A stretch of 63,942 nt of DNA, counting the filler, from an uncultured Acidimicrobiia bacterium (lineage in GTDB: Bacteria > Actinomycetota > Acidimicrobiia > Spongiisociales > JAOTWH01): NCBI GenBank assembly GCA_964347285.1. It is 5 parts of 5 records of this genome, joined end to end, with 100 filler letters (N's around TTAATTAATTAA, not from the genome) between each part and the next. Parts side by side here need not be neighbours in the genome. Positions count along the whole stretch, not along the records: positions 1 to 16,333 come from CAYFYE010000059.1; 4 more parts are not named here. One strand, given 5' to 3'. Under the pieces are notes generated by a model. It saw only the letters and a list, made by a program, of their open reading frames with translations. It was not told where the DNA came from and did not search any database. Numbering within the stretch: the stretch's first letter is position 1; each line of letters begins with the position of its first letter. Positions 9,150-13,431 of this stretch are shown here, in pieces. The position numbers and the translations under genes were made by a program.

Positions 9150-9986
9150 TCAGGCGGCTCGTACCCGCCGAGCCACCGCAACGGCGCCGGCACCAAGGAA
9201 TGCCGCCCACAGCGGCCCCATAGCCCCGATACCGAACTGGCCGGCGGCGGCATATCCGAGGGCGATGGCCAGGCCGAGGAGGCGGGCGGCTCGCAGCCGG
9301 CTGCGGTGCAACCGTCGGCGGGTGTGGTCCCCCACCGACATCGGTGCCGGTGTCGCGACGACCAGGAAGGCGGCGCTCACCACACCCGCCGAACCGATCA
9401 GGAGACCACCGAGATCCGGGGCCTCGAACTCCGCCCATTGGCCGGCGAAGCCGAAGGCGAGCCCGCCGACGGCGAGCACGGCCGGAACCACCCAGCGGTG
9501 CCAGGTCGGGCCGGGGTCGGACAGCGCAGTATCCAGCGCCGCAGCCGCTGCCAGCGCCGCCACCGCCACCAGGCCGGTGGGCCGTGTGGCCATGTAGGCG
9601 GACGCCCCGACCAGCACGGCCAGATCGAGGGGTCGGGACGGAACGCCGGTGGGTCGAAGCGTGACTCGCATGGCAATGAGCGCCGCCACTACTGCGGCCA
9701 GCGCCGGGCGGCCCACCAAGAGCGCGAGCAACGCCAGCGGTGCTCCCAAGGCTGCAGAGCGCGGGTCGTCGGGATCAATTTCTCGGCCGAGCGCCCAGGC
9801 CAGGAAGACCGCCAGGCCGGCCCGCACCCCTCCGCCGAAGGCATCGGACAGCTCACCGGTGATGGCCGCCGCGATCCCTCCAACGACGGCGGCGATGGTC
9901 GAGACGGCAACCGCGTACCGATTCGAGGCGTGACGGAAATCGAGCAGCCGGGCCAGGCTGCTGATGCGGGCGATGGGATGAGGCAC
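9150..9986 (-). CDS. Hypothetical integral membrane protein
   Basis: Multi-TM ORF with FLAWALGREIDPD motif; start uncertain (GTG 9986). Confidence 0.7.
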   Translation of the reverse strand: MPHPIARISSLARLLDFRHASNRYAVAVSTIAAVVGGIAAAITGELSDAFGGGVRAGLAVFLAWALGREIDPDDPRSAALGAPLALLALLVGRPALAAVVAALIAMRVTLRPTGVPSRPLDLAVLVGASAYMATRPTGLVAVAALAAAAALDTALSDPGPTWHRWVVPAVLAVGGLAFGFAGQWAEFEAPDLGGLLIGSAGVVSAAFLVVATPAPMSVGDHTRRRLHRSRLRAARLLGLAIALGYAAAGQFGIGAMGPLWAAFLGAGAVAVARRVRAA

Positions 9987-10107
9987 CGGGGGACCGTACC
10001 GTGCCCGTCGCCGCTGTGGGCGCTCCGGCGCGGTGCAGGGGCCGTCTGTTCGCGCCCCGGGTGACCCGCCGCTACCGGCTGTGGTCCGGTGGCCGCAAAG
10101 CCGGGAC

Positions 10108-10200
10108 GTGACCACGTTCTTCATCGCCCTCGGAGTCCTCGAGGACTCCGGCTATCTGCCCCGCGTTGCCGTGTTCACCAACCGGGTGTTCCGGATGGTG
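10108..10200 (+). pseudogene. feoB: Short internal fragment of ferrous iron transporter FeoB
   Basis: FFIALGVLEDSGYLPRVAVFTNRVFR matches the conserved FeoB LEDSGY..R motif; no GTPase domain or rest of the gene. Confidence 0.65.
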
Positions 10201-10545
10201 GTAAAGCTCAAAGTTCGGCATCTTTCCGCCGGCTTCGGAAAACCCCGGCCCCGTGGGAATTGGCCCTTCCCACAAAGTTGGATGCCGGGAAGGGAAGCCC
10301 AGGTCACCGGCGACGTGTCGCGTGACATCCGCGTGACATAGATCAGCCCCCGGTGCCGGGTTGGGGGGACGACAGCACCGAGGGCTGGGGGGTGTCCGTT
10401 GAGGCCGCATCGGTGAAAGCTCAGCTAGGTAGGCCCCCTCCTCAGCCCAGGAGTCCTTCGGCCTTTCTCACGGAGTCGTTGCGAACCTAGTCCCCTCTGT
10501 GGCCAGTCGGTGCCGGACCAACCGGCTTTGCTCTCGTTCCGTCAT

Positions 10546-10920
10546 TCAGCCATCCTGACTCGGGGTCGTCGGGTTGCACGCGATCCCTTGGACTCCAGGG
10601 AACACCCCCAACCAGCCCCATTCTTCGGGATTCTCCCTAACGATGATCATTATCTGTCCACCTGATTGCACTCTCCCACCGGCGGGGGAAAGAGCCCATA
10701 GCTCGTCATCCGCAAAGAAATCTTCGGGCATTTCGCCCTCAGGATTCGAGTCGGGGTGATAGTCAGGCTGATCCAACCCGTTCTTGGCACATTCGGACTG
10801 AGCGTTGTACTTGGCGGGCAGGTCACCCTTGTTCTTATTCCACTCCCCCGCGAACGCCACCTGTCCAAATGCGGCCAGGTAGAGAAGAGCTACCGAAAGA
10901 ACGATGAGTAGTCGCTTCAT
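10546..10920 (-). CDS. Small secreted hypothetical protein (2 Cys)
   Basis: ATG 10920 with GAGG RBS, signal peptide MKRLLIVLSVALLYLAAFGQVAFA; visibly more AT-rich than flanks. Confidence 0.7.
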   Translation of the reverse strand: MKRLLIVLSVALLYLAAFGQVAFAGEWNKNKGDLPAKYNAQSECAKNGLDQPDYHPDSNPEGEMPEDFFADDELWALSPAGGRVQSGGQIMIIVRENPEEWGWLGVFPGVQGIACNPTTPSQDG

Positions 10921-11064
10921 GTGTTGCCTCTTTGCTGGTTCCTTAGGAGCCGCTGGCTCCGACAAGGATGCGGCTCGGTGCAAGTCTCGGACGTTGTTCA
11001 CGTCCTTTCCCGATTCCTGGCAGGGACTGCTTGGACCGCTCTGATCTCACGAACCGAGCCTGGG

Positions 11065-11181
11065 TCAGTCGCTGAGACCTTTGAAGTCCCAGGATGGGGG
11101 CAAGGCCCCCAAAGTGGCCTTCGTAGGTGTGATCGGCGATCGAAGCCCGAAATCACGAATCTCCGGCTTCTCGTATTCCAT
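11065..11181 (-). CDS. RiPP-precursor-like peptide, copy 1 (probably frameshifted)
   Basis: GGGAGG RBS, MEYEKPEIRDFG; removing 2 nt near 11144 gives SIADHTYEGHFGG, matching copy 2. Confidence 0.65.
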   Translation of the reverse strand: MEYEKPEIRDFGLRSPITPTKATLGALPPSWDFKGLSD

Positions 11182-11227
11182 TGACCTCCCAGCCACAGTT
11201 GCCCGTTGCACGATGCCGTGCGGTGCG

Positions 11228-11257
11228 AAGGTATCACGCGGCCACGCTACGTGTCAA
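11228..11257 (-). promoter_or_regulatory. Housekeeping-sigma-type promoter for precursor copy 1
   Basis: TTGACA-N18-TACCTT with extended -10 TG, about 47 nt upstream of ATG 11181. Confidence 0.55.
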
Positions 11258-11289
11258 TGCACAGAATCGGCGAGGAGCGCCGTTGCCGC

Positions 11290-11312
11290 AAGACGGCGTC
11301 CGGTGCCGTCTT
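11290..11312. terminator. Hairpin between the two precursor-like genes
   Basis: aagacggc-gtccggt-gccgtctt, 8-bp stem. Confidence 0.35.
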
Positions 11313-11420
11313 CCAGACCGCGCAAGTTCCCGGATTGCACGAGGTGTAGCGGACGCGACGACGGCCCATGAGGGCAGACTGGCTGGACCTCATGGACCGT
11401 CGGATAGTGCGTTGGATCGG

Positions 11421-11540
11421 CTAGAGGTCGATCTCGTCCACGATCACGAGGGAGATTCCCCCGAAGTGCTGGTCGCAGGTGTGCTCGGCGATCGAGCCGA
11501 AGTCGATTACTTCCGGCTTCTCAAGGGAGGGAGGAATCAT
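11421..11540 (-). CDS. RiPP-precursor-like peptide, copy 2 (N-terminus probably replaced)
   Basis: MIPPSLEKPEVIDFGSIAEHTCDQHFGGISLVIVDEIDL*; paralogous to copy 1 at DNA and protein level from EKPE onward. Confidence 0.65.
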   Translation of the reverse strand: MIPPSLEKPEVIDFGSIAEHTCDQHFGGISLVIVDEIDL

Positions 11541-11697
11541 GAGGCGGCTACTTCTGGTCTTGGTGGTGGTGGCGCTGGTGATGGGCGTGAGCCTCTAGCC
11601 AGGTTCGAATTGTGCTTCGTGAACTGCTTGGATTCCGAGCAGCCGAGGCGGGCCGTGGCTATGGTCGCCGGGGTTACCGGCCCCAGCGGGAGGGATC

Positions 11698-12182
11698 ATG
11701 GCGAAGCGGACCTATCGCACCGACCAGATCGTCGTCCACTGGGACTCGGAGCGCTGTGTTCACAGCGGGATCTGTCTGGGGACCCTCCCCGCCGTGTTCG
11801 ACGTCGAGCGCCGGCCGTGTGGGTGACCGTCGACGGTGCCGGCGCCGACGAGATCGCCGCCGCCGTCTCGAAGTGCCCGTCCAGTGCGCTGCATTTCGAG
11901 CGGCTCGACGGGGCAGCGCAGGAGGAGCCCGCCCCCTACACCACCGTCTTTCCGTCGCCCGACGGGCCCCTCTACGTAAGGGGCGATGTGGTCGTGATCG
12001 ACCGGTCGGGAGAGGTCATTCGGCGCGACACCCGGGTGGCCCTGTGCCGGTGTGGCGCCAGCAACAACCAGCCGTTCTGCGACATGAGTCATCGGGACAT
12101 CGGCTTTCGGGACAAGCCGCCGGAGATCACCGAGCATCGAGACCAGGCGGAGTCGCCGCCCGAAGTGGCCCCCGAGTCCTAG
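11698..12182 (+). pseudogene. Fer4_19 (divergent 4Fe-4S) + CDGSH iron-sulfur protein, frameshifted
   Basis: MAKRTY...RCVHSGIC...PAVFD..RRP then 2-nt insertion at ~11818 before WV...KCPSSAL...GPLYVRG...ALCRCGASNNQPFCDMSH. Confidence 0.85.
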
Positions 12183-12186
12183 TGGC

Positions 12187-13431
12187 TCAGGCCAGCACCG
12201 CTTTTTCCTCGAGGGGGTGGGGCTCCCGGTCGATGGAGAAGAACGCCATGTCGGCGTCGGTGTCGTAGGACATGCTCTCGCCGGTGAGCCACTGGGCCAC
12301 CATCGACCCCACCGACGGCGCCTCCTTGAAGCCGTGGCCGCTGAAGCCGTTGGCGACCACGAACCCCTCGATGGCCGTCGGACCGATGATCGGATACACG
12401 TCCTCGACGTTCACCGTGTACAGGCCGGCGATGCCGGTCATGCCCCCCCGGTAAGGGAGGGACGGGATGCGGTGATGGAGGCTGTAGATCTTGGTGTCGC
12501 GAAACGCAGCATCGATGTTGGTGTTGAAGTGGTCCGGGTCGGGCACCTCTTCCTGCTCGTCCTCTTCCCGGATCGAGCCGACCAGGATCTGCTGGCCGGC
12601 GGCCTCGGGTCGGAAATAGATGCCGCCCGAGGAGTCGGCCACCACCGGGATGGGACCGGGCACCTCGTCGGGCCATTCCCGATAGAGGACCTGGGCCCGT
12701 ATGGGACGCAGCGTCCAGCCCAGCTCCAGGCCGGCCATGGCGGCCAGGCGGACGGCCCACGGACCGGCCGCGTTGACGACGATCGGGGCGTCGATCCGGC
12801 TGCCGTCGGCCAGGTCGACCCCGTCGACCCGGTCGCCCGAGGTGTGGACTCCGGTGACCTCGGAGCGAAAACGAACCTCGGCGCCGTCCCGCCGCACCGC
12901 CTCGCACAGATCCTGGGCGGCACTGACCGGATCGAAGTAGCCGGGCTCGGGTTCGTAGAGGAAGTCGTCGTGGTCGATGCAGTTGTGCTCGGTTGCACCG
13001 GTGAGGTCGAACGGCTCGTTGCACAGCGAGAGGGCGGGGAAGTGCTCCCGCACCGCCTCCCCGTCGAAATGCTCGACGGCGATGCCCAGCCCCGACATCA
13101 TCTCCTGGGCCTGCTCCACCTGGGCGGCGGTCTCGTTCATCATCCACAGCACGCCGGTGTGATGGAAGCGGGCCCGCGGCTCGGCCAGGCCGGTGAAGTC
13201 GGCCCAGCTCCGGTAGGCCCGGAGCCCGTCACGGGCCACCTTGATCGACTCCGGGTAGGTGTAGCGCTGGCGAAGGATGGCGCAGGAGGCTCCGGTCGAG
13301 CCCTCGGCCACGTTCGGGGCCTTCTCGAGAACCACGATCCGCAGGTCGGAGCGACGGATCGTCTGGTAGGCGATCGACAACCCCATGATTCCCGCTCCGA
13401 CGACCACAACGTCGGCGGTTTCCCGACTCAC
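12187..13431 (-). CDS. FAD-dependent oxidoreductase, DAO/sarcosine oxidase beta-like
   Basis: VVVGAGIMG Rossmann fold, VNAAGPWA, GFSGHGFKEAP. Confidence 0.92.
   Translation of the reverse strand: MSRETADVVVVGAGIMGLSIAYQTIRRSDLRIVVLEKAPNVAEGSTGASCAILRQRYTYPESIKVARDGLRAYRSWADFTGLAEPRARFHHTGVLWMMNETAAQVEQAQEMMSGLGIAVEHFDGEAVREHFPALSLCNEPFDLTGATEHNCIDHDDFLYEPEPGYFDPVSAAQDLCEAVRRDGAEVRFRSEVTGVHTSGDRVDGVDLADGSRIDAPIVVNAAGPWAVRLAAMAGLELGWTLRPIRAQVLYREWPDEVPGPIPVVADSSGGIYFRPEAAGQQILVGSIREEDEQEEVPDPDHFNTNIDAAFRDTKIYSLHHRIPSLPYRGGMTGIAGLYTVNVEDVYPIIGPTAIEGFVVANGFSGHGFKEAPSVGSMVAQWLTGESMSYDTDADMAFFSIDREPHPLEEKAVLA

Follow-up and report, generated by a model that had tools for sequence, protein, structure and literature searches.

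Two short minus-strand open reading frames in the window (the whole 63,942-nucleotide stretch of DNA analysed here) resemble precursors of ribosomally synthesized peptides, and they raise the question of which peptide family they belong to and whether they still serve it in this uncultured Acidimicrobiia bacterium. An earlier note had described them as paralogous, and both readings were reproduced (Table 1). Copy 1 begins MEYEKPEIRDFG, with SIADHTYEGHFGGL as its continuation in a shifted frame; as it stands, copy 1 remains open over 38 aa down to a TGA at 11065. The claim that the ORF track had missed the pair has to be amended for copy 2, whose exact protein is already present, without a name, on three contigs of an NCBI-derived protein collection; likewise, the HFGG stretch is common to both window copies but is not a motif of the family. 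Neither peptide matched Pfam or NCBIfam. Against 1.84 billion representatives, phmmer recovered nothing beyond the peptide itself and a pair of long proteins matched over several stretches, which are probably unrelated.

Table 1. Positions and strands of the features at the locus.
Feature	Position in the window	Strand	Remarks
Copy 1 precursor gene	11065..11181	-	Start and YxxP leader intact; frameshift follows codon 12; 38-aa frame stays open, core scrambled
-35 box TTGACA of the copy 1 cassette	11252..11257	-	In register in 17/24 homologous cassettes
Extended -10 box TG-n-TACCTT of copy 1	11228..11236	-	TACCTT itself at 11228-11233
5'-UTR hairpin of copy 1 (predicted)	11207..11221	-	Shorter than in homologues
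RBS GGGAGG of copy 1	11185..11190	-	
Two extra bases giving the frameshift of copy 1	11143..11146	-	Second X1 contig lacks the bases at 11144 and 11146
Copy 2, 39-aa ORF	11421..11540	-	Family homology only in 11421-11522
RBS and 19-codon signal-peptide-like remnant	11526..11598	+	Reverse complement gives the ATG and first residues of copy 2
124-aa acidic protein, signal-peptide-like N-terminus	10546..10920	-	Downstream of copy 1

To place the peptides, we searched species-representative genomes with a degenerate DNA pattern for PxIxDFGSIxxHT, which yielded 77 loci, 74 of which were retained once a chance match, a match within a long protein and a duplicate (one each) had been left out. At the 74 loci the match lies close to the start of an apparent short stand-alone ORF of about 35–65 aa, a few of these ORFs having no clear start codon or being cut by a contig end, and the hosts are mostly Actinomycetota, with some Chloroflexota, Gemmatimonadota and others. 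Neighbouring genes were clustered into families, and representatives of each were labeled with Pfam and NCBIfam; for the counts we used profiles derived from the same loci, many of which run into a contig edge. Within 10 kb we found an RRE at 68 loci, an HprK-like kinase at 66 and both at 63, together with a B2 protease (58), an asparagine-synthase-like gene (58, fragments counted), a nucleotidyltransferase (51) and an ABC permease (51); no SpI-type (SipW-like) peptidase occurs among the recurring neighbour families labeled by Pfam. The loci fall into three layouts: full lasso-like clusters, cyclase-less clusters, and tandem precursors accompanied only by an RRE and a kinase beside leuS (L044, L048, L069, L077 and L093). 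Two of the cyclase-less clusters (L053:8807-8902 and L054:9992-10099) encode short, extremely Arg/Lys-rich cores unlike those of the rest of the family. A scan of viral contigs gave a single match, antisense within a long phage ORF that we take to be portal-like, and it was rejected as chance.

These counts bear out the proposal of an uncharacterised RRE-linked family, since the homologues are short ORFs that stand alone beside RRE genes rather than pieces of larger proteins. The leader, which had been assigned to the lasso-type RRE-binding motif, appears to keep that register across the family. We did not find the leader family described in the papers searched.

The closest relatives of the window peptides form a subtype of their own. 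A profile made from 13 leuS-layout precursors plus copy 2 matches 23 of 401 genomes of the order, this genome included, and a search of the whole class gave no match beyond the order (7/401 genomes). The strong matches lie in g49, a genus of another Acidimicrobiia family, where 8 of 10 genomes carry one to six copies each; these genomes are kin rather than independent samples, and the cassette subtype rests on this one genus. The copies are dispersed in the genome, and nearly all share the same 5' unit, consisting of TTGACA, a spacer of 17–18 nt, TG-n-TAnnnT (17 of 24 in a scripted count), a hairpin and then GGGAGGTGCAATG, followed by a leader with the consensus YxxPxVxDFGSIxxHT and a variable core. 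The hairpin has z < -1.5 in 15 of 24 UTRs, with arms that vary.

The enzymes of g49 are distributed over separate loci. An RRE and a kinase occur at leuS in five genomes, and a B2 protease, an RRE and usually a nucleotidyltransferase lie in a sugar-gene region in four, where no precursor motif was found. L157, L158, L159 and L160 combine B2 and RRE genes, with a nucleotidyltransferase in at least three of them, in nucleotide-sugar gene regions where a nearby precursor motif was likewise not found. A short asparagine-synthase-like gene accompanies variant precursors in four g49 genomes; the genes at L139:6959-8101, L144:5374-6528, L145:7799-8914 and L146:6116-7195 encode proteins of about 370 aa with no N-terminal domain and sit directly upstream of variant precursors, the leaders of which are of the GDIAxHT type. 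The main locus of the cassette subtype contains neither cyclase nor B2. In two g49 genomes, 94% and 90% complete, we found only the RRE and the kinase, with no cyclase or B2 over cut-off anywhere. In a quick kinase tree of 48 rows, the four cassette-subtype kinases grouped at 100%.

Copy 1 belongs to this cassette type. Its DNA matches the cassette profile of g49 with an E value of 2.5e-29, and the GGGAGG RBS and the TTGACA-N18-TACCTT promoter were both located as previously reported. The 18-nt spacing places it among the 18 occurrences of TTGACR-N17/18-TAnnnT on both strands of the whole genome; a consensus promoter scanner with a stricter -10 rule did not report it. Promoter-region identity is 0.69 between copy 1 and its homologues and 0.75 among the homologues. 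The hairpin has a z-score of -1.05, versus a median of -2.2 over 24 UTRs, for a region picked after inspection; RNAalifold did not recover the UTR hairpin, and single-sequence folds of the UTR were no better than shuffles.

Copy 2 is a 5'-truncated member of the family. It matches the cassette-subtype profile with an E value of 4e-13, although this profile was itself built with copy 2, and retains F-G-G-I-S; it has no promoter and no RBS, so that the 5' cassette typical of g49 is present in copy 1 and missing in copy 2. Family homology ends at EKP, the N-terminus is replaced, and Leu stands in place of the leader Tyr of YxxP. Upstream identity to homologous cassettes is 0.42 and 0.37, compared to 0.75 and 0.79 among homologues. 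Read as its reverse complement, the start MIPPSL corresponds to the RBS and beginning of another gene. Across 57 nt, the plus-strand remnant shares 84% identity with the RBS and start of a gene on contig C63 whose product has a signal-peptide-like N-terminus. The copy 2 sequence is identical in L166. Neither window copy combines an intact leader and an aromatic-x-G-x-S core in a single frame.

The genome around the two copies offers them no detectable partners. The assembly comprises 187 contigs and 2.63 Mb at 67% GC and is 90.5% complete, and Pfam, TIGRFAM and family-built profiles detected no RRE, HprK-like kinase, B2 protease, cyclase or nucleotidyltransferase over cut-off, which extends to the whole assembly the observation that this part of the contig lacks an RRE, protease and cyclase. 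An initial nucleotidyltransferase profile (NT2) had been built from a mixed cluster, and the rebuilt profile gave no match in the genome. The leuS site is contiguous here, without the RRE and kinase that occupy it in g49. A six-frame motif scan of all 187 contigs revealed no third copy, and a profile search of seven other genomes of the bacterium's own family (70–89% complete) found no precursors. One own-family genome (G005) carries a separate cluster of RRE, B2, cyclase, nucleotidyltransferase and kinase genes with a different leader (L164:7734), which is closer to an ordinary phosphorylated lasso system.

Several observations concern the flanking DNA. The 124-aa protein has no Pfam match, an NCBIfam match only below cut-off and no homologue that we could find; in run X1, a diverged copy of its gene lies next to the second cassette contig. 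This gene is possibly part of the acquired unit and may move together with the precursor cassette. On the other flank, an iron-sulfur gene (Fer4_19 and zf-CDGSH, 11698-12182, plus strand) is interrupted by what looks like a 2-nt slip around 11815-11826; L166 and an X1 contig have identical letters there. The non-coding segment at 10130-10500 is lower in GC and without an Rfam match; several X1 and X2 contigs agree with it in part before diverging, with loose ends at 10107, 10163, 10193 and 10502, and it is possibly a repeat or insertion boundary. Rfam gave no match over 9900-12300, and local GC is 58–63% versus 67% genome-wide.

The cores of the family are hypervariable but have a serine motif in common, the predicted site of modification. 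Aromatic-x-G-x-S is present in 23 of 28 cassette-type cores (shuffled mean 1.8, maximum 7) and aromatic-x-E-x-S in 46 of 54 cores of the cyclase-linked subtype (shuffled 1.3); both motifs were first noticed by eye in the very set of related sequences on which the counts were made, and the counts are descriptive. Asp or Glu at core positions 7–9, by contrast with shuffled expectation, is not enriched in any of three subtypes (11/28 versus 11.3, 13/54 versus 18.8 and 0/10 versus 2.3) and is absent in both window copies, which accordingly lack the lasso combination of a small first residue and Asp/Glu at 7–9; this agrees with the earlier view that the cores are not canonical lasso cores. Among the full-cluster cores, only 2 of 54 combine a small first residue with an acceptor, 48 of 54 have a Ser among the last three residues, and a Lys usually lies upstream of aromatic-x-E-x-S, as judged by eye. 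These approximately 54 full lasso-like clusters, in the range L034-L110 (e.g., L042:9992-10123 and L050:9992-10126), have cores of the form Lys...D-K-F-G-E-x-S that mostly end near Ser, and many of them sit among polysaccharide genes; their peptides are candidate non-lasso macrolactams.

The kinase-like proteins retain the His, the Walker A sequence GKTT and a pair of acidic residues, which is DD in the cassette lineage, and they match solved HPr kinase structures (E 5e-5). By analogy with LppK and PadeK, they may carry out an RRE-guided (poly)phosphorylation of the internal motif Ser, and the product of the cassette subtype would be linear. We consider this family mechanism, a phosphorylated RRE-dependent peptide, plausible and, on balance, rather probable.

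The best-matching known system is that of the linear polyphosphorylated peptides (LPP), which in Paenibacillus alginolyticus are encoded by lppA-K-B-S-D-N (Popov et al. 2026, PMC13381572). LPP employs an RRE together with an HprK-like kinase, an NTP transferase and an SpI peptidase, polyphosphorylates Ser3, and is called Bacillota-restricted. Like LPP, the present family has a discrete RRE and an HprK-like kinase (linked to the precursor at 63 of the 74 relatives' loci and not detected in this genome), often a nucleotidyltransferase and a transporter, and no need of a cyclase. In both, the YxxP leader carries its Thr at the matching position (P+12), a conserved leader is joined to a variable core, an internal Ser is the likely target, and polysaccharide loci are a frequent location. 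They differ in that the LPP leader, YxxPxVLxHQxIxFETxxS, shares the P/V/I/T register but has HQxIxFET where the present family has DFGSIxxHT. Moreover, LPP modifies Ser3 right after ET, whereas the Ser of aromatic-x-G/E-x-S lies 5–20 residues into the core; LPP uses an SpI peptidase, whereas the present family appears to have B2 or no linked protease; and LPP is described as restricted to Bacillota, whereas the present hosts are mostly Actinomycetota and Chloroflexota. Dispersed precursors with their own promoters, as in g49, also set the family apart.

The fuller clusters share their gene set (RRE, B2, asparagine-synthase-like protein, HprK-like kinase, nucleotidyltransferase and ABC transporter) with phosphorylated lasso peptides of the paeninodin/pseudomycoidin type (PadeK, ThcoK), for which we used the lasso core rules and C-terminal Ser phosphorylation as given in PMC9266682. 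Unlike those peptides, the present cores conserve the internal aromatic-x-E-x-S in place of Asp/Glu at 7–9, and the main cassette locus dispenses with the cyclase and B2. The part of PMC7470986 considered does not mention kinases. The HPr-rel-A system (TIGR04352 kinase, TIGR04353 PqqD-family chaperone) likewise pairs a kinase-like protein with a discrete PqqD-family protein, but scores here are far under cut-off (about 50 versus 200 bits, and 17–22 versus 35 bits). Thus, the cassette peptides most likely work like LPP and not like lasso peptides, and the family as a whole would work like LPP but is filed neither as LPP nor as lasso.

As the earlier note had proposed, alignment of the two copies requires a 2-nt gap at about 11144. 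Were the extra bases an assembly error, copy 1 would be an intact precursor, and a second X1 contig (depth 3.5) indeed lacks them. However, this contig has two more deletions and 13 substitutions, with net indels of -4 and its own substitutions in leader and core, differences that at depth 3.5 may partly be errors, and a promoter-bearing X1 contig, whose depth is similar, ceases to match upstream of 11278. Because of the 13 further differing letters and the other upstream context, the second contig appears to be another decaying copy rather than a corrected copy 1. An X1 contig of twice the depth (7.6) reproduces 11056-11245 with 0 differences, the extra 2 nt included, L166 is identical to the window across the site (the three assemblies sharing the frameshift may have reads in common), and frameshift-like splits occur at 0 of 61 conserved places in the genome, which argues against general indel noise. 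The frameshift therefore looks real at the level of assembled sequence, and the chance of an assembly error is very slight. The shifted frame could also be alive, if compensating frameshifts had renewed its core and the intact promoter now drove a new 38-aa peptide: none of promoter, RBS and start is damaged, the frame still fits YxxPxIxxxGxxxxxT, and its stop falls near that of copy 2. Yet partner enzymes were not found in the assembly, the different indels and substitutions of the second X1 contig are what drift would give, and no intact homologue has a core derived by frameshift; we regard a renewed core as improbable. In the shifted frame of copy 1, Ala occupies the position of the motif Ser.

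Ordinary lasso precursors separated from their own cluster would explain the lasso register of the leader with its Gly and Thr, the B2 and asparagine-synthase-like genes at family loci, and a weak match to the lasso precursor model NF033521, seen for nine of the 14 precursors aligned (best E value 0.0022; 14–16 bits, among the matches listed, against a cut-off of 19). Against this stand the acidic residues at 7–9, unenriched in every subtype, and the g49 genomes without cyclase or B2; NF033521 gave no match for either window ORF, and such an origin is highly improbable. A better case can be made for expression of one or both copies with modification in trans by an RRE and a kinase in unassembled DNA. 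Machinery could have escaped assembly, since the genome is 90.5% complete in 187 contigs, and action in trans would be normal in the family, since the g49 machinery is split over separate loci and precursors without adjoining enzymes are common there; copy 2, moreover, has an intact frame with the Ser motif. On the other hand, copy 2 has lost its expression signals and the Tyr of YxxP, a motif reported as essential for RRE binding in LPP (PMC13381572), the core of copy 1 is scrambled, the leuS site is devoid of the enzymes, and all searches of the assembly were negative. Modification in trans is therefore unlikely, and of the two fates offered earlier, in trans or relic, the absence of detectable machinery from the whole genome favors the latter.

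We conclude that both ORFs are, with fair probability, damaged cassette copies of a predicted phosphopeptide family and likely relics here, as no RRE or kinase was found in the genome. That the locus is a relic is quite probable, although copy 1 keeps a near-consensus promoter, an RBS and an open frame; the frameshift in the neighbouring Fer4_19/CDGSH gene speaks for decay. The relic is most likely that of a probably acquired cassette, an undescribed variant of the LPP type. The ancestral unit would have been a self-contained cassette of promoter, hairpin, RBS, YxxPxVxDFGSIxxHT leader and variable core. A discrete RRE would bind the leader, an HprK-like kinase would phosphorylate the Ser of the internal aromatic-x-G-x-S in the manner of LppK and PadeK, and the product would remain linear in the cassette subtype. 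The cassette would have been acquired from a lineage carrying it and then have decayed; the sequences are most simply read as the outcome of horizontal acquisition and later decay. The earlier interpretation is thus supported in part, with the HprK-like kinase partner, the internal Ser motif and the truncation of copy 2 having gone unnoticed in it.

A broader picture may be offered tentatively. In it, a minimal two-protein system of RRE and HprK-like kinase would serve a genome-wide library of mobile cassettes, each with its own promoter and with a hypervariable core that undergoes (poly)phosphorylation at an internal aromatic-x-G-x-Ser. In some genomes a dedicated protease is missing altogether, so that uncleaved regulatory phosphopeptides are possible; the asparagine-synthase-like enzyme of sister clusters, acting on cores that depart from the lasso ring rule, would create a new macrolactam topology, and the window would hold a cassette that jumped between families without its enzymes. 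The locus itself is probably inert, and its value lies in the family to which it leads, with roughly 90 different precursors encoded by uncultured Actinomycetota, Chloroflexota and Gemmatimonadota and ranging from full lasso-like clusters through cyclase-less clusters to the two-enzyme form. This family would add to the phosphorylated-peptide systems that were reported from Bacillota in 2026. Precursor, RRE and kinase form a compact set that lends itself to direct tests, its target residue being predicted, and the cyclase-containing subtype provides a test case for lasso-type cyclases that close rings other than that from residue 1 to residues 7–9.
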